Source of the DNA: a virus
Virus record (IMG/VR): IMGVR_UViG_3300019850_000189
Span: 1-64,000 of that record
Reading direction: 5' to 3' (one strand)
Length of the DNA: 64,000 bases
Below the pieces are notes generated by a model. The model ran no database searches. It was not told the origin of the DNA and saw only the letters and a program-made list of their open reading frames with translations. Made by a program: the position numbers and the translations under genes. Positions 5,288-59,384 of this stretch are shown piece by piece (positions within the stretch are counted from its first letter, which is position 1; every line of letters begins with the position of its first letter).

Positions 5288-7162
5288 CTACATATTTTGC
5301 CATTCGGATAGTTTATGATCAAATATTTTGAGGCGCGCTGATAATTTATGCTTTTGAAATCCAATACGTGAATATCTATTCTTATAATCTGTGTAATAAT
5401 AATTCGGAGTGCTTGTATTTATATATTTGAAACCAGCAGATTGATAGCTTCTACCATTAAAATATCTAAGATCCGCGTAGCTAATAATAGAACCATCGTA
5501 GTCTAAATGTGATATTAATTTAGAAAAAGCGCCCGGTATTCGGTAATTAACCTTAGTAGCAAATCGCAGCAATTCGAATTCAGCCGATTTATTATACCTA
5601 GATTTACCCAATGTAATTATTGCCACTATATTGTTTTTATAAAATAGCCCCAGTTTTATTAAAGACGGAACATATCCCTGCAGATGATTTTCTTCTAAGA
5701 AGTTTCGTGCCATTTCTATATCTACTTCTTGAGTGTCACATGTTCGCGCAAATATCTTATTTTCAATAATCCCAATTTTGTTCAATATGATAGACTTCAC
5801 TATATCTTGTTTTTCTATCCATTCATCTTCAAATATATGAATTAAATTTATGCCGCGGGCTCTCATTAGGTTAGTTTTATCTAAATGATAATTTCTATTT
5901 TTCTTGCCACCAAGTTCGCTATGCCAGTACAGACCATCAAATTCTATTCCTAAATTGCAATCAGGAAGATAAATATCTATTTCGCTATTGTCAATTCTAA
6001 TATTTCTTTCTACTTTGGCATAGCGCTTCAACCAATTCTCAATTTCGTCTTCATAACGGCTAGTATTTGTCAGAGGAGGAAAACAACTCGGGCATCTTGG
6101 AATTTTGCCATCTTCCAAATTATCCTCAAATTCAATGCCACATTTAACGCAGCGCCATTTATATGCGCCATTTATGCCATCATATTCATCAATATTGAAC
6201 ATTGGGGTAACTAAATTTTTAAGCCTATTTCCACTTATTAACTGATTATATAGTCTTATTTTACGAGCTCGTGACATCTTATTTCTTATCGATGGGACTT
6301 GCGCTGTGTGAGGCCTACCATATTTTAATAAATTACTCTGTTCTATTTTTATTTTAATGGCCTTGGAAGCAAACACATTATCAACACCATATTTAGCCCT
6401 AACCGTATCTCGTATTCTTTTTCTAATATCTGAACTGCCAAAAGGAGATGGATGACCGTATCTATCGATATTTGTAGCTTTTATTTTATCTCTAACAGGA
6501 GAACAGGTTTTGCTGGGCCAATCAACGCCATATGTGTTCAAACTGGTGGCTCTGACTCTGTCCTTGACGGCAGCATTCATCATTGGGTTTTCTACGCCAT
6601 AATGTTTTAAGTTGGTTTGCTTTATTTTTTCCTTGACAGAATCCAATTGAAGTGTGCTCTTAACTCCATACTTTTTTAAGTTTGTTTTAATTGAGCTACT
6701 TACGGCTTTCTTTACGTTTCTTTTATTTCTAACTTTTGGCAGCTTCAACATGCAATCAGTGCCATATCTTTCCAACAATGTCTTTTTCGTTTTTTCTTCT
6801 ACTTCTTTTCCATGAAGGCTGCTTGCGTTGCCATATTTCTTTATATTAGTTTGCTTGACTTTTTCCTTTATGCGGCCGGATTTCATTGGGTGTGAAAAAC
6901 CATACTTCTCAATATTAGTTTCTATACGTTTTTCTATTGTAGATGGTAACTGTGCTGAATTTTCAACACCATACTTTTCCATTAAACGATATTTTCGGCT
7001 GCAGTTTGTGCAAAGCTGTTTTAAGCGTTCTGGTTTATTTCTATATTGTCGCCTAAATTCTTTTCCACACTCCTCGCAGACCCCACCTATAACAGTCATG
7101 AATTTCAACTTCGTGTTGGGTGTTAGCTCCCGTCTTTCATTACCCTCTATAACATACATCAT
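5288..7162 (-). CDS. Free-standing homing endonuclease, paralog of 3431..5110, cut short by an in-frame TAG 18 codons before the homologous end
   Basis: Same architecture; EWQNM-TAG-LNNWDRIWDCG versus EWQNMQLNGWDRIWDCG in the paralog. Confidence 0.75.
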   Translation of the reverse strand: MMYVIEGNERRELTPNTKLKFMTVIGGVCEECGKEFRRQYRNKPERLKQLCTNCSRKYRLMEKYGVENSAQLPSTIEKRIETNIEKYGFSHPMKSGRIKEKVKQTNIKKYGNASSLHGKEVEEKTKKTLLERYGTDCMLKLPKVRNKRNVKKAVSSSIKTNLKKYGVKSTLQLDSVKEKIKQTNLKHYGVENPMMNAAVKDRVRATSLNTYGVDWPSKTCSPVRDKIKATNIDRYGHPSPFGSSDIRKRIRDTVRAKYGVDNVFASKAIKIKIEQSNLLKYGRPHTAQVPSIRNKMSRARKIRLYNQLISGNRLKNLVTPMFNIDEYDGINGAYKWRCVKCGIEFEDNLEDGKIPRCPSCFPPLTNTSRYEDEIENWLKRYAKVERNIRIDNSEIDIYLPDCNLGIEFDGLYWHSELGGKKNRNYHLDKTNLMRARGINLIHIFEDEWIEKQDIVKSIILNKIGIIENKIFARTCDTQEVDIEMARNFLEENHLQGYVPSLIKLGLFYKNNIVAIITLGKSRYNKSAEFELLRFATKVNYRIPGAFSKLISHLDYDGSIISYADLRYFNGRSYQSAGFKYINTSTPNYYYTDYKNRYSRIGFQKHKLSARLKIFDHKLSEWQNM

Positions 7163-10627: not shown

Positions 10628-11968
10628 TTATTCTTCTTCCTCTTCTTCCTCTTCTTCACCTTTTGTTGCACCAGCAAGAAAATCAATGATTTCCTTCAAT
10701 CTGGTATCTTCAATACCTTTTGCTTTTGCATTTTCAAGATCAGATATGATGTTAGAGAGGAAATCGGCTTCATCGGAATCTGAATCAAGCTGCTTTTTTA
10801 TGGTTTTCAATGTCGCCACAATTTCCTTGATGTTTTCGTCATCAACTTCATCGGCTGCTTTGTCTTTCTTTTCTTTGCTTTTTTTATCAGGCTCCGAAGG
10901 CTCAGCAACCGCGTCCGGCGACAGCTCGGCAGCTTTTTCTTCATCATCTTGTTCAAACATTACTTCAGCGATTTGTTCTGGGGTAGCACCTAGTGATTCA
11001 TAATAATCTTCTTTAATTGCTTTTATATCGTCATGAATAAGTAATTTATTCATGATTTCTACTAAAGTATTTGCGTTCTTTGAATTTGTCATAAGAGCTG
11101 TTCTCATCATAACTTCTTGATATCTGGAAGGTTCCAACAAAAACAATTCCTTGTTGTTTTCAAAAAACATTTCGGCCGCTTCGATAGCATCCTCTAATGC
11201 TTCTGCTTGCTGGAGATCAAAAGTGAAGTTAGAAAATTTCTGCCTAAAGGCATCGGTTTTCCATAATTTATATAGCTTCCCAGCCAAAGCTTTCATTTTA
11301 GCTTTAATTTCTTTATCTTCCAAACTTTTGATATCGGGCGAAATGTAATTATATACATTTGTATCTACTTTGTAGCCCTTTTTATTACTCCAATCAACTT
11401 TGTTAAGAGATTGGCTAACTGCATTTTCAGCCTCTAGCTGTAGCTTAGCGGAAAGTTTTCTAACAAAAGGCTTAGTCATGAGTTCATGAATTTGAGCATA
11501 ATTTCTATCGCGCAATTCTCTCAATTTATGTTTAGCCATGATTGATGGGTTATCATATATTTTTCTAAGCTTGTTATCCTTCGCTTCTGTAATTTCCCTT
11601 CTAGCATTATCATAAAACTTGAGTCTGAAACCTTCAACTAACTCTTCTGTCGGTACGATTGGATCATTCTCGATGTCAAAAAGATCACCAACTTTTTCAC
11701 CAAGAACAGTATCATCGTTTTCGGTTAAATCTATTAGCTCAAAACCGCTAACGCTGAGAATTCCATTAGAGTAATCGTATGAGCAGATGTATGGTTGATT
11801 TGTTTCTTCATCAAGAACAATAATTTTGTCATCGTATAATGCCATTAAGGCCGCGTTCTCAGATTCAGCAAATATTTCAGAAAATTTGTCATAGAGCTTC
11901 TCACTACTCTTATCTGCAACCTTTCTGAATTGATTATATGTCAACTGCATAGAATCATTCCTCCTCAT
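10628..11968 (-). CDS. Hypothetical acidic head-assembly protein (true start probably 11950)
   Basis: 446-aa ORF between portal and protease; many L/I-x-E sites; GGAGG RBS before MQLTY. Confidence 0.7.
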   Translation of the reverse strand: MRRNDSMQLTYNQFRKVADKSSEKLYDKFSEIFAESENAALMALYDDKIIVLDEETNQPYICSYDYSNGILSVSGFELIDLTENDDTVLGEKVGDLFDIENDPIVPTEELVEGFRLKFYDNARREITEAKDNKLRKIYDNPSIMAKHKLRELRDRNYAQIHELMTKPFVRKLSAKLQLEAENAVSQSLNKVDWSNKKGYKVDTNVYNYISPDIKSLEDKEIKAKMKALAGKLYKLWKTDAFRQKFSNFTFDLQQAEALEDAIEAAEMFFENNKELFLLEPSRYQEVMMRTALMTNSKNANTLVEIMNKLLIHDDIKAIKEDYYESLGATPEQIAEVMFEQDDEEKAAELSPDAVAEPSEPDKKSKEKKDKAADEVDDENIKEIVATLKTIKKQLDSDSDEADFLSNIISDLENAKAKGIEDTRLKEIIDFLAGATKGEEEEEEEEE

Positions 11969-14538
11969 TTCTTTTTATTATTAATTCCTCTAAATTCTCC
12001 ATGGAGGAACTGGTTTTGATATGTGTTGCTGCGCATCGTATTTGATATGCCTTCAGAAACATCATACTTAAGATTATCTTTGTCCTTATTTGACTTTTGC
12101 TTAACATATTTTATCATTTTCAATATATCATATTTATTCTCGAGCAAGAACTCCTTATCGCCAATTGTTATTGTTTTCCCTGCCACTTCTGGGCCGGCCG
12201 GAGCTTCGGGAGCTTCGGGAGCTGCTGGAGCTGCTGGAGCCGCTTCCGGACCAGCTTCAGCACCAGCTTCTGGTCCGGCTGGCACCTCACCAATTCCACC
12301 AGCCGTACCCGGCACTGCTCCTAATTCTCCGGCACCAGCTCCTCCACCGGCTGGAAGTGCAGCGCCAAATCCCTGAGCTCCACCACCAGCAGTCTGTTGC
12401 TGTAATGGAGATGCCAGTTCTAATTGCATATCTGTTTCCAGATCAGTAATTTGCTTATCTGAAAACTTCATAATATTCTTATATATCCATTTTTTAGGCA
12501 GAAAATTTTCTATTGACAGAATAGTACTTACCAAATTAATTTTTTGTGTTACAACCTCTAATTCAAGCAACTCAGCTATATTGGATGGAGGCGTTAATTC
12601 AATCTGGAAATTTCTGACATCCTGTCCCCTAAATCCTTGTAGTGTCAAAGACACTATAGCTATTTTTTCGAGGCCTTTCATTATGTGCCTCTGAATACGC
12701 TCAACAGACCTTGAAAATTTAATATCCATCTGACTCAAGGCATTTCGCGTATCCATTCCACCGCCTTCCTGCATATACTGAGGCGGTATGTGCATCGTCT
12801 TTAATAATTTATCTCTAAAGTATTTTGTATCATCAATTTCATTAAGTTGGCGGCCACCTTGAAGCACATCTATTCGGGTCCCCTGTCCTGCGGTTGCTCC
12901 TGATCTTACCGGAATCCAAAAGTCTTCCAATATAGATAAAGGAGTCGCTTTTTCGTTAATCTTACCGGAGTTCTTAACAAATGTTCCTTCATAGGAACCA
13001 ATGGCAAAATTATGATAATTCGCAATAGAGAGAGTTCCAGTATCTAATGTGTAATTTAGTTTTTCAACTTTTACAACTTTGTGATTAATTACGCGCTTAT
13101 ATTCTGGGTCTGCCCACATGGCAATTGCTCTTTCCGACATCATGTCGGCGTGTAATTGAAAATGTTCATTGCCAGACATTACTTGTATATTAGTGGGATT
13201 ATTATTTTTCTTATTAAGATCGCGATGATGCCTGACAGATATTGCCCCTTCTTCTTTCATATTATTAAAATCTTCTTGGAACATAAAGTCACTGATAGTA
13301 TGTGTAAAAACATACTGATTAATTGATGGGTCTACTACTAAATCATATCCTTTTATTTTATACTTGTCATCTGACTCTTTTCGATACAGGGGCATAAGGC
13401 TGTCCCCTTTGTTCAACTGTTCCGCAGGGACATAGGTTCCATCTCGCATGAGAAACTTATGGTCTGGAGTTACAGTAAACGATTGCCCATCATCTATAGT
13501 TACTTTTACTACAGGTGTAGATTTTCGTGTAATGCCTGCCCACTTAACATGCCCTGGAACAATCTTGTTGTTATTATCTCTATCTACAGAATATGTCCAT
13601 AGATCTTTGCCATTATCGAATTCATTAATAATATCTTGAAGTGGCAGAATTCTACCATCTAAAAGAGGAATTTCTGTGTCAAGAGCTAAACACGCTGGAT
13701 CGATATATTTCTTTTTTCTGAACTTTGCTTTAATTCGCTCTATGAATTTTTCCGCTTCGGGTGTGGAGAGTGTGCCGACATCAATATAAAATACCCTTTT
13801 CTCTGGTGCGCGCTCAAGTCTATATACGAGCATCGCATCTTCCATCAATGACAATTGTTTCCAAGTCCTGCGACCTGATTCTAAAACGGACCTTCCATAA
13901 GGAGCAAATATATTATCATCAATCCTAAAGTGTACAACTTCCCATGGCTGCAACTTTATTTTATTCGACTTTTCTGGATGCGCATAAATGGTTCTTTGAG
14001 ACCCCTCTTTAGCAACATTCTTAGCTACCGCAAAATTAAGTAAATTGCCATCAACCTCCATTCGTTCGACATTCATAGGAGGTAAATACTTAAGCGATAC
14101 TATTTCTTTCTTTTTATCATCGACAATTATTTCATAGAAATTATCGCCATACTGACATGTGCCATAAAATATGCGCCATAAATCTGCATTCATGTCTAAA
14201 TTATCAAAGAACGTGTGATTCAGATTTTTAATGATATCATCATTACTGGAACTTATGTCCAATACTTGTTCATTATTATTAAGCTGACTACCATCATCAG
14301 CATACGTAACCAATCCTAAATCTAGTTCCGGAACAAGAACCATATTTTCATAATCTTTATATCGTTCTCTACGCTCATTGGATACGGTTATATAAGTTGT
14401 CATCCAATGGTATGTATCCGAATCTATAAAATCGCGATCCTTCAGTGTTTGGATAGCTCTACTGGAATCAAGATCCTTTGCTGTTATTTTAAGCTTATTG
14501 AAAAAATCTTGATATTCTCGACTACGTTTGCTGGCCAT
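11965..14538 (-). CDS. gp20: Portal protein (T4 gp20-like) containing an intein
   Basis: LSLMEDAMLVYRLERAPEKRVFYIDVG, EDFWIPVR...GTRIDVLQGG, YFRDKL; Ala/Gly/Pro-rich tail. Confidence 0.93.
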   Translation of the reverse strand: MASKRSREYQDFFNKLKITAKDLDSSRAIQTLKDRDFIDSDTYHWMTTYITVSNERRERYKDYENMVLVPELDLGLVTYADDGSQLNNNEQVLDISSSNDDIIKNLNHTFFDNLDMNADLWRIFYGTCQYGDNFYEIIVDDKKKEIVSLKYLPPMNVERMEVDGNLLNFAVAKNVAKEGSQRTIYAHPEKSNKIKLQPWEVVHFRIDDNIFAPYGRSVLESGRRTWKQLSLMEDAMLVYRLERAPEKRVFYIDVGTLSTPEAEKFIERIKAKFRKKKYIDPACLALDTEIPLLDGRILPLQDIINEFDNGKDLWTYSVDRDNNNKIVPGHVKWAGITRKSTPVVKVTIDDGQSFTVTPDHKFLMRDGTYVPAEQLNKGDSLMPLYRKESDDKYKIKGYDLVVDPSINQYVFTHTISDFMFQEDFNNMKEEGAISVRHHRDLNKKNNNPTNIQVMSGNEHFQLHADMMSERAIAMWADPEYKRVINHKVVKVEKLNYTLDTGTLSIANYHNFAIGSYEGTFVKNSGKINEKATPLSILEDFWIPVRSGATAGQGTRIDVLQGGRQLNEIDDTKYFRDKLLKTMHIPPQYMQEGGGMDTRNALSQMDIKFSRSVERIQRHIMKGLEKIAIVSLTLQGFRGQDVRNFQIELTPPSNIAELLELEVVTQKINLVSTILSIENFLPKKWIYKNIMKFSDKQITDLETDMQLELASPLQQQTAGGGAQGFGAALPAGGGAGAGELGAVPGTAGGIGEVPAGPEAGAEAGPEAAPAAPAAPEAPEAPAGPEVAGKTITIGDKEFLLENKYDILKMIKYVKQKSNKDKDNLKYDVSEGISNTMRSNTYQNQFLHGEFRGINNKKK
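12970..13692 (-). mobile_element. Intein in portal (241 aa) with an HNH-like insert
   Basis: DPA|CLALDTEIPLLDG ... TPDHKF ... HHRDLNKKNNNPTNIQV ... NFAIGSYEGTFVKN|SGKI. Confidence 0.88.
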
Positions 14539-22705: not shown

Positions 22706-25546
22706 TTAGCTGCATTTACTATACCCGCATTTCAAGCAGACAGCGCATCCGCTTTGATATACCATGTCCTGGCTTCCGCATGACGGACAGACGACACCAG
22801 TTGCGACTTTTTCTCCATCCTTGATATATTTTTTAAGTACTCTCGCTATCGCTTTATTAAAGGCGGAAAAATCTTGCTTCTCTTTTGAGAGCTGATCGGA
22901 AATAAAATATATTGGAGTTCCATGCCGCAAGCTCATAGAAATCATTCGTGTAAGCACATTGTATTCTGTATTTTCAAAAAGTGCCAGAATATCATTAAAA
23001 GATAAATTGTCATCTTCTTCAACAGGTATGCGCAAAGAATATCTCTTTTTGCCCTCCTTAACAATTTTACCCTCTTTATACTTTTTAGGGATATTTATCT
23101 TGTCTTCAAGACCGGCAAAAATTTCATAAGGCTCATCGCCCATTTTACCTATCAACACAAGCCAATTTTTCTTTTCTGATGTTATATGATATACGTCGCA
23201 TGGAAGTTCTTTTGGCCTTGGAGGAGCATAATGCCTCTTGATTTTATAAGGTTCTCTACCCTCATCAACAATATTATTATAATTATTTTCTGTAATCAAA
23301 ACACCAGTTTTAGATCCTTCGCGGTAGACTGTAGCTCCTTTGAGCCCTTTCTCCCATGCGGATAAGTAAATGTCTCTGACATTATCTTTGGTGGCATTAA
23401 TAGGTAAATTAAATGTGGTAGAAATAGAACTATCACAATAATGTTGAACTATTTTGAGAAAATCTATTTTTTTTACGTTATCAACATTATATGCCGTGGA
23501 CCAAAAATCTTCATTGCAAAATTTCTTTACATTTTCTCTTGTAACCGCATGACGATTGTCTTTTAGATATCTGCTTACTGCCTCATTGAATACAAACCAT
23601 TCATTCCACTGGCCATCATTAGAACTTCTTTCTCTCCTAACATAATATTTAGAGAAAATAGGCTCTATGCCGGTGCCGCCGGCGCCGAGTATAATAGAAA
23701 TAGTCCCAGTGGGCGCATATGTGGTAGATGCGACATGTCTAAGATGCTTTATATCATCTTCTGATATAATATTCTCTTCTATCAGTTCTCTATAGTGTTT
23801 TGCTCGGCGCGCCTTTTTGAAATCAAACTTACCAAATGTTCCTCTTTCCGCACCAAGATCATTTGAAGCCTGAATAGTATACTTTCTAAAATTGGAAAAT
23901 ACTGTGTTGGCCAGTTCTAGAGCAGCAGGTCCATCATATTTCACCTTTTTTCTTATTAACCAATCTGCCCATCCTGTTATACCCAATCCAACGCGCGTCA
24001 TTGATCGCATTTTTTCTAGTTGTATTTTAGAAGGGCTGCGTTTTTCATTGAGTTCATTTAGTACTACATTGTCTAAATATCTAATACCAAAAAATGAAAG
24101 CTCCTTCAACCATTTTAAAAATTCATCTATTTCTAATGGGGCATAAACCAGTGATATAGAAGCCAGAACACAGGTGTTAAACGGATCCAACACTTGCTCA
24201 GAATTAGATGTATAAAGTATTGACCATTTTTTGTATGTCTTTCCTACTTCACGATATGACAGTGAATATGCTACTATATGATCTGGATGATCAACTTCAA
24301 TATCAAATGTGTCTTGAATACCAAGATATTCTACTGAGACAATTTCATGATTATAGCTTGACCATTTTCCTCTTTTTTTTGATTTCACGGCTTCTATATT
24401 TCCAGATAGGAGACTATCGCCCACTTCAAGATCTTTAGTAAATTTAAGCTCAAGATTTGTAGTGTAGAATTTATGTTCTGCTGTGCATTTAATAGAACTT
24501 CCATCATCAAAATTAACTCTATGCACCGGCTTAGGCCCAATTGTGAAACCTCTAACTATATGAGCTATAACAGGCTTATCGGCTTTTTTGTCCCAGGAAT
24601 GTACTTGCCACTTCAAATCTGGATTTTGTTCATATGCTTTGACAACATCTTTAATTGGAATAGGGTCTCTTCCATCAGCAAGAGCCACCAACGTGTCTCC
24701 AGTTAGACAACATGCGTTACTACTCGTTACCTTATATTTTTTACCATATATATCAGAATTGGAATAGTCGCGCATTCTATCTATAAATTGAATACCGGGG
24801 TCACCTGTCAGCCAAGCTTGGGACACCAGTAAATCAAACAATTCTTTGGCACTTTTCTTTACAATAACTTTATCATCTTCATATTCAAGACTCTGCCACC
24901 GCAAAATCCATTCTTTATCGTCGATCGCCGCCTTCATAAAATCATCGGTTATTTGAATTGAGATGTTGGCGGTAGATAAATTATTTTTACCTTCTTTTAT
25001 CTTACAGAAGCTTTCGAAATCTGGGTATGTATCATGAATTGAAATAAGACTTGCGCCGCGGCGGCCTTGCTGAGCTATAGTAGCCAAAACTGTATCAAAA
25101 TAGGGCATAAACGAAACAGCTCCCGTGGCTGTCTTAGCGGTATTGTGAAGTGGCATGCCTTTTGGTCTAAGGTCGCTTAGATCAACGCCATTGCCTTGAC
25201 CGTATGCCGCAAATTTACCCCACCAATAAAGGCTTTCAAAAATACTTTCCAAATTGTCTTTTGGCGGTGCTAGAGTTGTGCAGTTCACATTTGATATTTT
25301 GTTAGTATTTGTGCCAGCAGCTCTCCACTGTCCCCCGCCAGGGCTGAAGTATTTTTCAAGAATGAAATATCTTGTCTTTTCTACCATTTCTTTCTTTAAT
25401 TTTGTATCATATTTATTTTCGCTTACGGCAATTCTCATTGCCGCATCTGATATGCTCTCTTTCTTTCCATTTTTCTTGGTTTTAGCATATTTAGAGTTAA
25501 AAATAGTCTCTGCGAATTCACTATCAAAAAAATCTTCATTTCTCAT
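22706..25546 (-). CDS. nrdJ: Class II (adenosylcobalamin-dependent) ribonucleotide reductase with intein
   Basis: SPGGG, NC, GQGNG, QQGRRGA, NAC(intein)SEQ, C-x-LASI, RVGLGITG, APTGTIS, DSSISTT, KGATVYR, C-terminal Zn ribbon; start at MRNEDFF inferred (ORF track starts 25594). Confidence 0.92.
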   Translation of the reverse strand: MRNEDFFDSEFAETIFNSKYAKTKKNGKKESISDAAMRIAVSENKYDTKLKKEMVEKTRYFILEKYFSPGGGQWRAAGTNTNKISNVNCTTLAPPKDNLESIFESLYWWGKFAAYGQGNGVDLSDLRPKGMPLHNTAKTATGAVSFMPYFDTVLATIAQQGRRGASLISIHDTYPDFESFCKIKEGKNNLSTANISIQITDDFMKAAIDDKEWILRWQSLEYEDDKVIVKKSAKELFDLLVSQAWLTGDPGIQFIDRMRDYSNSDIYGKKYKVTSSNACCLTGDTLVALADGRDPIPIKDVVKAYEQNPDLKWQVHSWDKKADKPVIAHIVRGFTIGPKPVHRVNFDDGSSIKCTAEHKFYTTNLELKFTKDLEVGDSLLSGNIEAVKSKKRGKWSSYNHEIVSVEYLGIQDTFDIEVDHPDHIVAYSLSYREVGKTYKKWSILYTSNSEQVLDPFNTCVLASISLVYAPLEIDEFLKWLKELSFFGIRYLDNVVLNELNEKRSPSKIQLEKMRSMTRVGLGITGWADWLIRKKVKYDGPAALELANTVFSNFRKYTIQASNDLGAERGTFGKFDFKKARRAKHYRELIEENIISEDDIKHLRHVASTTYAPTGTISIILGAGGTGIEPIFSKYYVRRERSSNDGQWNEWFVFNEAVSRYLKDNRHAVTRENVKKFCNEDFWSTAYNVDNVKKIDFLKIVQHYCDSSISTTFNLPINATKDNVRDIYLSAWEKGLKGATVYREGSKTGVLITENNYNNIVDEGREPYKIKRHYAPPRPKELPCDVYHITSEKKNWLVLIGKMGDEPYEIFAGLEDKINIPKKYKEGKIVKEGKKRYSLRIPVEEDDNLSFNDILALFENTEYNVLTRMISMSLRHGTPIYFISDQLSKEKQDFSAFNKAIARVLKKYIKDGEKVATGVVCPSCGSQDMVYQSGCAVCLKCGYSKCS
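24203..24709 (-). mobile_element. Mini-intein (169 aa, no endonuclease) in NrdJ active-site loop
   Basis: NAC|CLTGDTLVALADG ... CTAEHKF ... DTFDIEV ... LYTSN|SEQ. Confidence 0.88.
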
Positions 25547-25559
25547 AGGATTGATTCCT

Positions 25560-26111
25560 TTATACTTTCCAGTAGAATTGTAGTACCTGGGCAAATTTTA
25601 ATAGACCGGCTTTATCGATAATTACTTCATCACTTTCTTGAAATGTGGGACTTAAAATGTAGGAATATGGGGGTTTAGATGGTTTAACCGGAGAAATTGA
25701 TATCTCTCGAGCTCCCGACTCGTCCAAGCTACGATCCAAGGAACTAATAGCTAAACTGCCATATTCACTCCCTATCTCTATCAGTGTATAGTTATTGTTA
25801 TCAGAATCCAATCTGAATTCAAACTTTTGATGGGGTATATCTCCCAATTCCAGTTCTAATGCTGCGCGCAGGTCAGGATACTGATCTCGTTTCAATATAA
25901 TTCCAAGAGGCATATATTTTTTTTTAGGAGTGAGCGCCTGCCTAATGCGATATTCAAGAGGCCAGAAATTTGGATCTTTAAAATCCCAGACGTATTCAGG
26001 TTCGGCATCATCTTTGAGCTTAAAGCGAGAAATTAAAATATATTCGTTACAGCCGCACCCGCAATGAATTTTTATTATAGGTTTCATAAATCCAGCATAT
26101 ATGTGTGTCAT
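25560..26111 (-). CDS. Hypothetical protein (probable start 26087)
   Basis: ORF in operon context. Confidence 0.65.
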   Translation of the reverse strand: MTHIYAGFMKPIIKIHCGCGCNEYILISRFKLKDDAEPEYVWDFKDPNFWPLEYRIRQALTPKKKYMPLGIILKRDQYPDLRAALELELGDIPHQKFEFRLDSDNNNYTLIEIGSEYGSLAISSLDRSLDESGAREISISPVKPSKPPYSYILSPTFQESDEVIIDKAGLLKFAQVLQFYWKV

Positions 26112-41174: not shown

Positions 41175-43073
41175 CTATTTTTTTATTATTTTCGTAAATT
41201 TTAAGTTTCCGCAATCGTATATACGCCAGAATCCTGCTTCATCCATAATTTGAAATTCAGTTTTGTTTTCATTATAATTAGAAAATTTTTTAAGCGCGCT
41301 TTTTCTATATTTGAATCTGTGTTGCCGTATTGATTGTCCGTTGGCTATATACCAATAATTAGGGGCAGTTTCTTTCACCAATTCGAATCCGATTTTTTTG
41401 TATAAATTTCCATTACTCCACCTTCTGTCCGCATAACTGTAAATCTCTACTGGATAGTAATGCTGAATGAAATACTTCAGCATTTTACTTGCTGCGCCCG
41501 GAATGGATGTATCCGGTATGGTAGCGTATCTAGTTAGTTCATAAACATTATCGTTGCTTTTCTTTTGGCCTAACGCAAGTCTAGGTTTTGAAAATGTCAT
41601 AACCGCTACTAATTGAGTATTATAGAACGCTCCAAGATTGATGTTGGCCTTATCACTGCCTTGCAAATGGTAGTTTTCTAAGAATAATGTTTTTTGTTTA
41701 CTATCTATTTCTTGTATGTGGGTTTTTCTGGCTCCAATTGTATTTTTATTAAAGCCAAGTATGGCCTTGAGACGGCTTTTAACTATTGCTTGTTTATATA
41801 TCCATTCATCCTCAAAAATATGAATTAATTTTATGTTGTTGTGAAGGCATTTCTGTGTTTTGTTTAGATGGTAGTATTTGTCTTTGTATAAGCTTGAGTG
41901 CCAATAAAGTCCGTCCAGCTCTATCGCTATTTTATATCGAGAAAGATAGATATCTATTTCTTGCGGCGGAATTATCGATCTTGAATTTGTTACTAAACTT
42001 ATTTTAAATGTTTTTAAGAAATCAGCCAGCTCTAATTCCATGTTAGAAATTCTGCTTGAACGAGGATAACAAAAGGGGCATCTTGGATTGGAACCACCAA
42101 TTAAATTGTCTTCAAATACTTTATTGCACTTAGTACATTTCCATTTTAAAGTGGTTTTTATGCCGCTGTAATCTTTTGGTTTAAATAAAGGCACAGCCTC
42201 TACTATGCGTTGCCCTGTAAATATGCTGTTCAGGAATTTTTGCCTGGATATATCACTAATTTTGTCTTTGACTAATTGGCTTTGCGCTGGGTTTCTCGTT
42301 CCGTATTTCTTTTGACTAGTTGCGACTATTTTAGCTCTAACGGTTACTGATGATAGAGGATTTTCAACACCATATTTCTTTAAATTAGTCTCTTTGACTT
42401 TCTCTTGAATTTCTTTATTTGCTAGGGGAAAGCGAGCACCATATTTCTTAAAATTAGTCATAGCTATTTTTTCTTGAATTTTTGTGCTTGAAAAAGGCAT
42501 TTCAGCGCTGTACCTTTTAAGATTAGTTTGTCTGATTTTGTGTTTTATTATTTCGTTTTGGGCAGGATTCATCACGTCATATTTTTCTAAGCAAGTTGAC
42601 GTCCTTTTTTGAATTATTTCCGGAGCCTGTGAAGGATTTTTAACTCCATATTTTCTTAACCAAGTTTGTTCTACTTTTTTATGTATTTCAGGATTATGGA
42701 GGCTACACTCAACGCCATATCGCTGTAAATTAGTGGCTTTCACTTTATTCTTCACAGCTTTATTTTGCATTGGATTTTCTGTTCCATATTTCGACAAGCT
42801 TGTTTCTTTTAATAAACATTGCCCACATTTAATACAAGGCTCAAAAAACTTTTTGTTATATAAGAATAACTGAGTTGTTTGTTTATTACAAAGGCAACAA
42901 TTGTACACTATTTTATCATTTTTGGCGACTTTTTGTGTTCCGTTGATTATTAAATATTTGTCTTTAACTTCAACTTGATTAACATTTATCACTTGATGAG
43001 TTTTAGAAACTATTACTTGTTTAATCATTATTGCTCCACAACTATATATGTGTTTGATAAAAAAAAGCATCAA
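41175..43073 (-). CDS. Free-standing homing endonuclease, same family as 3431 and 5288 (probable start 43028)
   Basis: TNxxKYG repeats, EIDIYL...IELDGLYWH, RIYDCG. Confidence 0.75.
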   Translation of the reverse strand: MMLFFIKHIYSCGAIMIKQVIVSKTHQVINVNQVEVKDKYLIINGTQKVAKNDKIVYNCCLCNKQTTQLFLYNKKFFEPCIKCGQCLLKETSLSKYGTENPMQNKAVKNKVKATNLQRYGVECSLHNPEIHKKVEQTWLRKYGVKNPSQAPEIIQKRTSTCLEKYDVMNPAQNEIIKHKIRQTNLKRYSAEMPFSSTKIQEKIAMTNFKKYGARFPLANKEIQEKVKETNLKKYGVENPLSSVTVRAKIVATSQKKYGTRNPAQSQLVKDKISDISRQKFLNSIFTGQRIVEAVPLFKPKDYSGIKTTLKWKCTKCNKVFEDNLIGGSNPRCPFCYPRSSRISNMELELADFLKTFKISLVTNSRSIIPPQEIDIYLSRYKIAIELDGLYWHSSLYKDKYYHLNKTQKCLHNNIKLIHIFEDEWIYKQAIVKSRLKAILGFNKNTIGARKTHIQEIDSKQKTLFLENYHLQGSDKANINLGAFYNTQLVAVMTFSKPRLALGQKKSNDNVYELTRYATIPDTSIPGAASKMLKYFIQHYYPVEIYSYADRRWSNGNLYKKIGFELVKETAPNYWYIANGQSIRQHRFKYRKSALKKFSNYNENKTEFQIMDEAGFWRIYDCGNLKFTKIIKK

Positions 43074-52275: not shown

Positions 52276-54030
52276 CTAATATTTTTTCATCTTTCTATCA
52301 ATTTTATCTATTATATTGTCAATACTCAACTCTTCCATTATAACATCTTCTTTAATGGCTGTGTAGTTATTGCTAATTCGTCCCTCTTTGATTGTTAGCG
52401 CCTCCTGGTTCCATGAATATTGATTGTTGAATGTGAACCATGTGTCCAGATAGCATCCAGCATATCCACCATTTTTAGCCAGTGGCTTTTTTTCTATAGG
52501 TATTTTGGGATCTGGAAAAAAACACCAGTCCAAAATAACCCATTCCAAACTTCTCTGCGAATCAGCACGATCTGCCAGATAAATAGAATAACCATGTCCT
52601 CCCATTTCTGCTTTTGGACCTGGTTTTACATATCCAGCCACCACCTTGGCGCGCCATGGCGGAATGCCTGCGTTAATGAGCAAGCTTGTAATTAAAATAC
52701 CGCCGTCTTCGCAATTTTTTACAATGCTTCCGTTTTTGGTAATGAAATTATGCGTCTCTTGCACTTCAAAATCCCTCATTTCTACTTCTTCTAAATCTTC
52801 GATATAAGAGATGGAGACTTCACTTATCCCTTCATATCCATAATCTTTCTGAAAATGTGAATTTGAATTATAAATAACTCTATATATTGGAGCAGTTCCA
52901 AATCCAGTATGTTCAGATTGGCAATAGACATATAAAGGTTTTCCTAATTGCAAATGAATCCTTTGAAGATCACTCACCAATTGTTCCGAGACAGTTGAAT
53001 AAAATAATCGAGAGTTGTTGTTATATCCTCTTTTGTCTGGATAATCAGTTATGTGGCCATCTCCCAAGTGATAGCCATTCAGAAAACTTTGTAGCTTATT
53101 TTCTGGGAGGTGGAAAAACTCTTCTGGAATATGGATATCAAAACTATTAGTTTTAAATTGTTTTAAGTAATCCTTAAACTGACTTTTCAAAAAAGTCAAT
53201 ATAGGCAAACCATTATGTTCATGTTCTGAAAATAAAATATTATTTTTTTCTAAGAGTGGAATTATTTCTTCAGTTATAGCATAGCCACTAGTAGCTATGT
53301 GCCCATGAGAATGCCACCCCTCTGCAATGTAATGCCCTATTACAAAACATAAGTCCTCATTTAACCATTCAATGTCTCGTATTTTATAAGGAATTTTTTT
53401 GGTCATTGGCATTTTTTTGGTCCACCATTTGCTAAGATCTAAATCTTTCACTCTAGTTTCTTTGTATATACTTTTTTTCTGGGATTGCCGTATAAGAAGT
53501 TTATGTTCGTCTGATACATCTATCCATTGCCCATTTCGCAGATGAACCCTTTTTAACGGCAGGAGACCTTTCTCCCATATTTTGCTAATATATTTATAAC
53601 AATATTTCTTTTTTTCAAAATCATAGGACAAAACATTGTCACCGACTTTCAGATCGCCAACTTTTTTTATACCATCTTCTGTGTATATTTCTTCATAATT
53701 AGCAATACAATCTCCAGTGCTAGCGGAAATTGTTTCAAATGGAAATTGCCAGAACTCGGGAATTTTTGCAGTATCATCGTCATATTTATATGTAAGAAAT
53801 TGGCATACGAATTTTTGCACCGCCCACGCTGTCTCATTGTGTGTTCTTTTCTTTAAGTTATATTTTTTGATTACCTCATGAAGTATGGCGTCATTGGCGG
53901 AAATAAAATCTTTCACATCAACTCCTATTTGCTTTTTTTGCCATCTAAGCGCCCGGCCTCCATAAATTATAGGAGCTCTTGGCCATTTGTTGTTCCAATA
54001 GTTTTCGCCATAATTACCATAATCTGGCAT
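52276..54030 (-). CDS. Transglutaminase-like cysteine protease/transferase interrupted by an intein
   Basis: EFWQFPFETI..TGD(intein)CEDGGILITSLL...GHGY...W.ILDW catalytic triad pattern. Confidence 0.8.
   Translation of the reverse strand: MPDYGNYGENYWNNKWPRAPIIYGGRALRWQKKQIGVDVKDFISANDAILHEVIKKYNLKKRTHNETAWAVQKFVCQFLTYKYDDDTAKIPEFWQFPFETISASTGDCIANYEEIYTEDGIKKVGDLKVGDNVLSYDFEKKKYCYKYISKIWEKGLLPLKRVHLRNGQWIDVSDEHKLLIRQSQKKSIYKETRVKDLDLSKWWTKKMPMTKKIPYKIRDIEWLNEDLCFVIGHYIAEGWHSHGHIATSGYAITEEIIPLLEKNNILFSEHEHNGLPILTFLKSQFKDYLKQFKTNSFDIHIPEEFFHLPENKLQSFLNGYHLGDGHITDYPDKRGYNNNSRLFYSTVSEQLVSDLQRIHLQLGKPLYVYCQSEHTGFGTAPIYRVIYNSNSHFQKDYGYEGISEVSISYIEDLEEVEMRDFEVQETHNFITKNGSIVKNCEDGGILITSLLINAGIPPWRAKVVAGYVKPGPKAEMGGHGYSIYLADRADSQRSLEWVILDWCFFPDPKIPIEKKPLAKNGGYAGCYLDTWFTFNNQYSWNQEALTIKEGRISNNYTAIKEDVIMEELSIDNIIDKIDRKMKKY
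52714..53709 (-). mobile_element. Intein (332 aa) with LAGLIDADG endonuclease
   Basis: TGD|CIANYEEIYT ... SDEHKL ... IGHYIAEGW ... FLNGYHLGDG ... MRDFEVQETHNFITKNGSIVKN|CED. Confidence 0.9.
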
Positions 54031-57549: not shown

Positions 57550-58338
57550 ATGGACACACTCACAAAAGAATTGATCAATAGTTTCAAAAAAGATTATCCT
57601 TACAATCCATTGGTGGTATTCGGTGAAGATGAGAAATATGGCAAAATTCCAGGCTGGATATCATCTTCAAGTTACAGTTTGAATTGGCTCGCTAGCAAAT
57701 CTCTCCGTAGAGGATTGCCTACCGGCCGGACCGCCGTTATTGTTGGGGATCCCTCGACAGGCAAAACCGCGATTGCCATATCCTGTATGAGAGATCCGAG
57801 CATAGATCTTATTGTTTATTTAGATAGTGAAGGCGGCGGTGCTGATGCCAGTTTTGCCGAATTTTTAGGTGCAGATCCGAAAAAGATATTATATTCTCCA
57901 GTTGATACTATGGATGAGCTTAAATCAAAAATGAGTAAAGTTATAGACACAATCGAGAAAAATCAATCCACTAAAAAGGTATTGGTTGTTATAGATTCAA
58001 TGTCCATGATAAGCACTGAAAAAGAAATGAACCCGGAGAAAGGCTGTTACGTTGAGGGTACCATAGTTCCCACTACTGATGGCTCAAAACCAATAGAAGC
58101 TATTACTATTGGGAATAAAGTAATCACACATCTGGGCGAGTGGAAAGAGGTAGAAAAAGTATGGGAATATACTGATAAAGACGACCTCATAGAAATCACC
58201 ATGGAGAATGATATTACTATCAAATTAACTCCTAATCATCGGCTACTAGTTCAACGAGATGGTTCATTGCAATGGATCGCCGCTGAAGATTTGAAGGTAA
58301 CTGATTTGTTGCAACAATTGGATAACAAAAAGCATTAA
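57550..58338 (+). CDS. uvsX: RecA/UvsX recombinase N-terminal half fused to split-intein N fragment
   Basis: SSSYSLNW...GLPTGR..VGDPSTGKT, YLDSEG, VVIDS, then CYVEGT...TPNHRLL. Confidence 0.9.
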   Translation: MDTLTKELINSFKKDYPYNPLVVFGEDEKYGKIPGWISSSSYSLNWLASKSLRRGLPTGRTAVIVGDPSTGKTAIAISCMRDPSIDLIVYLDSEGGGADASFAEFLGADPKKILYSPVDTMDELKSKMSKVIDTIEKNQSTKKVLVVIDSMSMISTEKEMNPEKGCYVEGTIVPTTDGSKPIEAITIGNKVITHLGEWKEVEKVWEYTDKDDLIEITMENDITIKLTPNHRLLVQRDGSLQWIAAEDLKVTDLLQQLDNKKH

Positions 58339-58580
58339 GGCGGGATAGTGTGTCATTATCATATGGGAGAAGGATTATACAGAAAGCCCAAAAAAGATTG
58401 TACGACAACTTTTAAGGAGTATAAATGATGATTAATTATGAAGATGTTTTTGTAGAGTCAATGTACCGGCCGGTAAGAATAAAGTCCATCAAGAAAATTT
58501 CGAATAAGCAAAAAGTGTATGATTTATCGGTAAAAGATCATAAATCGTATTGCACAAATAATGGCATCATAGGCCATAAT
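58045..58580 (+). mobile_element. Naturally split intein (IntN 97 aa at 58045-58335; IntC 52 aa at 58425-58580)
   Basis: Block A Cys and block B TPNH lie in ORF1; VYDLSV...HKSY...IIGHN|S lies in ORF2, which has its own AAGGAG RBS. Confidence 0.85.
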
Positions 58581-59384
58581 TCAGATATGGGCGCAAAAGC
58601 TAAACAGGTTCGTGAATATTTCAGGATTTATTCTCGCAAAATTCAGAAAATGAACATGTGTCTTCTCATGACCGCTCACTATACTCAAAGGCTGGATCCG
58701 TATGGTCCTCCAAAGGTTGTTGGTGGCGGCACAATTATGGCGTTTGCGCCAAGTCTTACTATTGAATTGAGCCACAATACGAAGGAAAGCGATATTGAAA
58801 AATCAGCCAAGGGTGCCAGCATTGTCGGCCTGAGAGCCAAAATCATAAAGTCGCGACTGGGCACATATGGCAAACAGATGGAGTTCGAGTTTAATATGAA
58901 TCAAGGCCTTGATCCATATTCAGGATTATTCAACATACTCAAAGATTATGGCATTATTATCCCTGCCGCGAAGGATCTGGAGGCACAAATAAAAGAAAAG
59001 AATATCCCTAAAAAGTCAACCGGCGCATGGATATTTAACGCCTGGGAATATCCGGAAATATTTGAAAACTTCAAAAAGCATATTCGCGCATCTGGCAAAT
59101 TCAGGGAAAAGGAATTCAATGGTTTTTGTGCAAAAAATAATGACTGGATTATAGATCTTATTCAATCATCATTGGATAAAGCCACACATATAGATGCGAT
59201 AAAGATGAAACCGGTCCAGGCCGCAGATGACGAAGCTCATGAAGAGACGGAGCCTGCCGTACAAACGGAATCAGATAAACCCAAAACCAAGAAAAAGACC
59301 GAAAAGGCGTCAAAAGACAAGAGCGCGGTAGAACTTCTTGCGGGCACATTGGCACCCAAGTCTGAGAAGAGCCAGAAGAAATAA
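58425..59384 (+). CDS. uvsX: Split-intein C fragment fused to RecA/UvsX C-terminal half
   Basis: GHN|SDMGAKAK, TAHYTQ, VGGG..MAFAPS, KSRLG, GLDPYSGLF. Confidence 0.9.
   Translation: MMINYEDVFVESMYRPVRIKSIKKISNKQKVYDLSVKDHKSYCTNNGIIGHNSDMGAKAKQVREYFRIYSRKIQKMNMCLLMTAHYTQRLDPYGPPKVVGGGTIMAFAPSLTIELSHNTKESDIEKSAKGASIVGLRAKIIKSRLGTYGKQMEFEFNMNQGLDPYSGLFNILKDYGIIIPAAKDLEAQIKEKNIPKKSTGAWIFNAWEYPEIFENFKKHIRASGKFREKEFNGFCAKNNDWIIDLIQSSLDKATHIDAIKMKPVQAADDEAHEETEPAVQTESDKPKTKKKTEKASKDKSAVELLAGTLAPKSEKSQKK

Follow-up and report, generated by a model that had tools for sequence, protein, structure and literature searches.

Two adjacent genes carrying the halves of a split intein probably encode the UvsX recombinase of an uncultured large phage

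In an uncultured large phage, the UvsX recombinase is spread over two adjacent plus-strand open reading frames, each of which carries one half of an intein. The locus lies within 64,000 nucleotides of viral DNA (positions 1 to 64,000 of IMG/VR record IMGVR_UViG_3300019850_000189; hereafter "the window"), and we put at roughly 85% the probability that the two halves, when co-expressed, are trans-spliced into a 432-aa UvsX. The reading of the locus as UvsX/RecA encoded by two genes with a naturally split intein goes back to a first-pass annotation, and it is borne out here by the complementarity of the halves, by the intactness of the splicing residues and by the recurrence of the arrangement in other phage contigs. 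What our analysis adds is that the locus is a "fractured gene" from which the endonuclease has disappeared. The features are as follows (window coordinates):

57550-58338, plus strand: ORF1, 262 aa, UvsX N-extein (165 aa) followed by IntN (97 aa); TAA stop at 58336-58338
57550-58044, plus strand: N-extein, first part of the RecA/UvsX ATPase core, ending ...EKG; matched by Pfam RecA and PHROG 97
57745-57768, plus strand: Walker A motif GDPSTGKT of ORF1
57979-57999, plus strand: Walker B strand VLVVIDS of ORF1
58045-58335, plus strand: IntN, 97 aa from Cys166 of ORF1 (CYVEGT), Cys1 codon at 58045-58047; placed by Hint_2, Intein_splicing and the family alignment
58228-58239, plus strand: intein block B, TPNH (Thr227 and His230 of ORF1)
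58339-58424, plus strand: spacer of 86 nt, closed by stops in each of the three frames
58349-58435, plus strand: homing-endonuclease remnant, 28 codons and a stop, read one base behind the ORF2 frame
58414-58419, plus strand: Shine-Dalgarno sequence AAGGAG, 5 nt 5' of the ORF2 ATG
58425-59384, plus strand: ORF2 (stop included), 319 aa, IntC (52 aa) followed by the UvsX C-extein (267 aa)
58425-58580, plus strand: IntC, 52 aa, with block F VYDLSV at 58515-58532 and block G ...IIGHN ending in His51-Asn52
58581-59381, plus strand: C-extein, beginning with the +1 nucleophile Ser53 (58581-58583) and DMGAKAK; rest of loop L1 and the C-terminal domain
58722-58754, plus strand: loop L2 (GGG...), within the C-extein of ORF2

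The individual elements named in the first-pass annotation—the Walker motifs, intein blocks A and B and the stop at 58338 in ORF1, the 86-nt gap with its AAGGAG, the block F and IIGHN of ORF2 followed by SDMGAKAK, and fragment sizes of 97 and 52 aa—are all present where it had placed them. Its further claim, that SDMGAKAK resumes the RecA sequence in register, agrees with a gap-free alignment of the joined exteins, which amount to 432 aa and are collinear with the intein-less orthologues P0002-P0005 (409-449 aa), the closest relatives in a collection of 5.8 billion proteins. The two ORFs can be taken as consecutive parts of one recombinase because their Pfam, PHROG and PDB matches are complementary. 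Specifically, Pfam RecA matches residues 9-164 of ORF1, and RecA and PHROG 97 fall on the extein parts of both ORFs; profile positions 21-183 of PHROG 97 ("UvsX-like recombinase") are covered by ORF1 and positions 187-258 by ORF2, and PDB chains of UvsX and RecA are matched by ORF1 up to chain residue ~161-173 and by ORF2 from ~173-185. The N-extein is 76-80% and the C-extein 67-75% identical to P0002-P0005, so that the two halves are preserved to the same degree, an argument against a decaying gene. These orthologues are continuous across the predicted junction (...KG-SD(M/Y)GAKAKQ...), whose counterpart in E. coli RecA is the segment GDSHMG, which we take to be DNA-binding loop L1. The IMG/VR relatives of the N-half (L012-L015) are likewise all intein-less. 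No second uvsX or recA was found in the 189-kb virus record (79% complete by CheckV estimate, so that another recombinase gene may yet lie in the missing part), and the UvsX encoded here is most likely assembled from both halves after translation.

Each ORF carries a recognizable intein fragment. Intein_splicing (PF14890) matches residues 183-255 of ORF1 at 37.3 bits (model positions 37-93 of 155; cut-off 35.8) and residues 17-52 of ORF2 at 27.1 bits (model positions 121-155), a score that on its own lies below the cut-off, while Hint_2 (PF13403) matches residues 166-221 of ORF1 at 29.5 bits (cut-off 28.4); IntN and IntC together cover Pfam model positions 2-93 and 121-155. They also align over their whole length with two contiguous mini-inteins, that of P0017 (a 609-aa UvsX) and that of P0084, compared with which the split pair lacks only a linker of ~20 residues. 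Cys166 of ORF1, which begins IntN, comes immediately after the last extein residue that can be aligned to intein-less orthologues. All of the splicing residues (Cys1, TxxH, block F Asp, terminal His-Asn, Ser+1) are intact, and in the family alignment six of six members keep Cys1, the block F Asp and the terminal His-Asn, while five have TPNH as block B, the sixth (P0084) having S-K-D-H. Net charge is -7 for IntN and +4 for IntC, and an acidic IntN with a basic IntC is the polarity familiar from other natural split inteins. The fragment sizes are near the 100-120 and 35-40 aa that are usual for split inteins (PMC12707363), with an IntC that is somewhat longer.

The best match of IntN among solved structures is the Pho RadA mini-intein (4e2u; E 1.9e-5). 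In a structure model of the contiguous relative P0017, pLDDT was 61-84 over the N-terminal part of the intein and 31-54 (low confidence) over the part corresponding to IntC; the model aligned with UvsX 9gbg (Z 25.2, 275 residues, rmsd 3.0) and with T4 UvsX 3io5 (Z 23.7, 257 residues, rmsd 2.7), in each case on either side of the intein, and all matches of the fold search were RecA/UvsX. Judged by these sequence features, we regard the element as a genuine, canonically split class-1 intein (Cys1/Ser+1) in loop L1 of UvsX.

On the trans-splicing reading, both genes would probably be transcribed together and each translated from its own ribosome-binding site, after which IntN (97 aa, acidic) and IntC (52 aa, basic) would come together as one HINT domain. 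Cys166 of ORF1 would then form the thioester, Ser53 of ORF2 would attack it, and Asn52 would cyclize with the help of His51, so that the exteins would be joined as ...EKG-SDMGAKAK... in a 432-aa UvsX with its DNA-binding loop intact. The halves could instead form a non-covalent, two-subunit recombinase, whether because the intein fragments only dimerize or because the exteins complement each other without splicing; intein-less split phage enzymes (Aeh1 NrdA and a split gp43 polymerase, cited in PMC2677866) do still work. Yet Cys1, TxxH, the block F Asp, His-Asn and Ser+1 are intact both here and across the family, and an unspliced domain of 149 aa would occupy DNA-binding loop L1, and we therefore consider a non-covalent enzyme highly improbable.

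The split itself would have to be discounted if errors of assembly or sequencing, or a recent mutation, had interrupted a contiguous mini-intein gene, leaving what is in truth one ORF or a dying pseudogene. The exact sequence is known from one contig (a cluster of 1), and the exact 26-nt junction pattern had no match in metagenome or viral contig collections (from which the window's own record may have been masked); as no independent copy of the exact junction was found, the stop and spacer rest on one assembly. Blastn with the locus as query gave no match among 50,697 phage records. One distant relative, L030, has a C-half that looks broken. Against this, the two ORFs do not share a frame, and within the spacer the ORF2 frame is closed twice beyond the stop of ORF1 and the ORF1 frame by a double stop; with different frames and stops in all three, it would take two or more sequence errors to fuse the ORFs, and no single indel or substitution would join them. 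The spacer reads as an endonuclease remnant in the third frame, not as an intein linker, and a proper ribosome-binding site and ATG stand 5' of IntC. Both exteins are ~75% identical to intact orthologues with no indel, every catalytic residue is retained, and the split form recurs in independent samples. Taken together, these points make an artefact or a gene in decay quite unlikely, and we retain the reading of two genes. A programmed frameshift or readthrough linking the ORFs was also considered and is ruled out by the stops in every frame. No promoter-like or terminator-like site was found on the plus strand of the 86-nt spacer, so that co-transcription of ORF1 and ORF2 is likely, as far as the spacer sequence indicates.

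The spacer offers a candidate history for the split. Along its full length, its remnant can be aligned to the C-termini of endonucleases encoded at the related loci L001, L002, L029 and L031 (z 7-10), with a score reached by none of 500 shuffles, and the endonuclease of L035 ends in the same way. The remnant overlaps the start of ORF2 by 11 nt, the corresponding overlap in L001 being 8 nt. The locus is thus a fractured gene minus ~0.9 kb of endonuclease gene. The first-pass annotation had seen no endonuclease between the halves; this holds in that a full free-standing homing-endonuclease gene is absent, but the 28-codon remnant at 58349-58435 qualifies it. In relatives, the ORF between the halves has matches to PHROG 3339 ("homing endonuclease") and PHROG 22677, and its E-x4-F-W-H spacing fits the Vsr-like family of PMC2677866; it had no match in Pfam or PDB sequence searches and, as Pfam did not recover it, its Vsr-like status rests on the motifs and PHROG 3339. 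We propose that a free-standing homing-endonuclease gene would have split a mini-intein to give a fractured gene, and that a later deletion of the endonuclease would have left its last 28 codons as the spacer, which also carries the ribosome-binding site of ORF2.

The window itself encodes two large free-standing homing endonucleases (5288-7162 and 41175-43073, both on the minus strand; PHROG 3339/559, E 1e-124 and 1e-135), and the remnant showed no similarity to either. Four further inteins, all in cis, occur in the same phage genome. One is in the portal protein ORF (11965-14538, minus strand; intein at ~13000-13668, with an HNH-endonuclease PHROG match at residues 394-471), one is a mini-intein (~24281-24688) in the large subunit of ribonucleotide reductase (22706-25594, minus strand), one is in a 584-aa ORF without a PHROG match (52276-54030, minus strand), and the last is in an 885-aa ORF that lies outside the window (123202-123528 of the phage's own genome).

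Related loci differ in insertion site and in what stands between the halves, and they cover the contiguous mini-intein, the split form with an endonuclease and the split form without one (a slash marks the point of insertion):

P0017: contiguous mini-intein in UvsX
L031, L033 and L035: same site as the window (site a), endonuclease ORF present
L003, 5177-6972: same site as the window, 53-nt spacer, no endonuclease
L001 and L002: homologous intein at site b (ADMG/SKAK), 4 residues further downstream, with an endonuclease ORF of 324-331 aa between the halves
L001, 6001-8798: the site-b split locus
L029, 1850-6503 (Logan SRR17165187), also a site-b relative: uvsX in three pieces with two split inteins, each with its own endonuclease
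L030, 2996-4741 (JGI 3300002231): N-half with IntN; IntC ORF without the terminal His-Asn and out of frame with the C-extein

A split intein thus occurs with a free-standing endonuclease in L001, L002, L029, L031, L033 and L035, and the full endonuclease gene is present in L001, L002, L029, L033 and L035. In the three-piece uvsX of L029, the N-extein with a first IntN (after the Lys of the GSGK P-loop) is followed by an endonuclease, then by the first IntC (139 aa) with the middle extein and a second IntN, and, after a second endonuclease, by the second IntC with the C-extein; two trans-splicing events would be required, judging from this order, to yield UvsX. L030 is either a decayed copy or the product of a frameshift error. 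Upstream of the split uvsX of L001 (193-3773), a 145-aa ORF with an Intein_splicing match lies between ORFs of 358 and 650 aa, and this locus may be another split-intein gene; the 660-aa ORF of L003 that corresponds to the 650-aa ORF has AAA_23/SMC_N matches.

The two insertion sites in loop L1 lie close together in related genes. Between L003 and L001 the IntN is 67-78% identical and the exteins are 83-87% identical, with the intein at GG/SDMG in the one and ADMG/SKAK in the other, and both sites are GGY/GCR codon pairs in L013, the one intein-less gene examined. A third L1 site is found 4-5 residues further on, in P0026, P0049, P0072 and P0084. In L035 (194-3301 of JFJP01045735.1), three selfish elements share one loop-coding stretch, i.e., a split intein, an endonuclease ORF with a C-terminus resembling those of the Vsr-like ones, and a group I intron (2233-2453; Rfam RF00028, 97.6 bits) that sits immediately 3' of the SDMG codons. 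The 12-nt stretch of both intein sites therefore also houses a group I intron in one relative, an observation relevant to the possibility that inteins of the L1-loop uvsX family have hopped from site to site. We offer such "site-hopping" only tentatively, and we are similarly doubtful that the window's pair, with its small Gly(-1)/Ser(+1) junction and opposite charges on its fragments, will be a fast split intein orthogonal to the pairs now used.

The locus resembles those described by Dassa et al. (2009; PMC2677866) in that a phage replication or repair gene is present as two adjacent same-strand ORFs, split canonically at the endonuclease-insertion point of a mini-intein and provided with separate translation signals, and in that its relatives keep a free-standing endonuclease between the halves. 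In arrangement it equals the gp41-7 locus of that study, from which the endonuclease is absent, and within the gene-breaking model it stands at the step where the endonuclease is lost. Unlike the loci of that study, however, it retains a recognizable endonuclease remnant, and its host gene is uvsX, interrupted in loop L1, whereas UvsX appears in PMC2677866 as a neighboring gene only.

A fractured uvsX also exists in a cultured phage, the T4-like Yersinia phage vB_YenM_TG1 (KP202158), where the gene is likewise present as two genes with IntN and IntC (L068 1865-4443, corresponding to KP202158 19461-22039) but is annotated as two CDS for a "RecA-like recombination protein" with no intein. Its IntN is 33% identical to that of the window; it differs in that the insertion (GGG/TG) is in the L2 region and not in L1, and in that a GIY-YIG endonuclease is still there. 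The VidaL split inteins, among them VidaL T4Lh-1 and VidaL UvsX-2, are presumably also linked to a phage uvsX gene. According to PMC13014065, VidaL from the Lake Vida metagenome is, like the window's intein, a natural, cysteine-dependent split intein from environmental data, but it is atypically split with an IntN of 16 aa, whereas the window's pair is canonically split into 97 and 52 aa. The only PDB intein chains recovered at E <= 1 were those of Pho RadA, MJ0781, a bacterial intein-like domain, AceL NrdHF and an Npu DnaE chimera; as no other intein chain came within that limit, the solved VidaL chains showed no sequence similarity to the window's pair. Inteins inside RecA-family recombinases are also those of M. 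tuberculosis RecA and P. horikoshii RadA, although these are cis-splicing and cellular. The RadA intein is inserted at the P-loop and the M. tuberculosis RecA intein after the KVVK strand. RecA is a frequent intein host (PMC4760082).

How common are split uvsX genes? With ORF1 as the query, HMMER was run exhaustively over 1.84 billion cluster representatives (50% identity), and we sorted the best 150 matches, among which 48 were RecA/UvsX N-halves ending in IntN and 19 were contiguous forms, with insertions at no fewer than three positions in L1 (i.e., at least three), in the NHxY strand and in the GGG of L2. P0017 and other contiguous forms emerged from this search and had been missed by a word-based one, which among proteins longer than 460 aa gave a single weak IntN match (P0013, 36% identity). 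A word-based search with IntC found one relative, and a metagenome scan with an IntC alignment gave at least two loci among the matches listed. IMG/VR holds many uvsX loci fractured at the L2 site, with inserts of 717-929 nt and, in one case, a spacer of 107 nt. The initial view that natural split inteins are rare, and with it the prospect of a new orthogonal pair, was therefore overstated, given that 48 of the 150 best matches are split and that a cultured Yersinia phage has such a gene as well. Split inteins in phage recA/uvsX are common in public data and the locus is an ordinary example of them. Among the papers covered by our literature search, none describes a UvsX intein that is canonically split.

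Natural split inteins serve as protein-ligation tools, for which new efficient and orthogonal pairs would be useful, and the locus offers a Cys1/Ser+1 pair of 97 + 52 aa whose junction is Gly/Ser; since loci of this kind abound, its practical value is moderate. Its added value lies in the endonuclease scar, the 4-residue site shift, the three-piece uvsX and the occurrence of an intron and an intein at one loop. The locus clearly captures the final stage of the gene-breaking model, with a datable scar, and its relatives supply the earlier steps. More broadly, these loci suggest that many environmental phages would depend on protein trans-splicing for their recombinase, the very enzyme on which homing elements rely.
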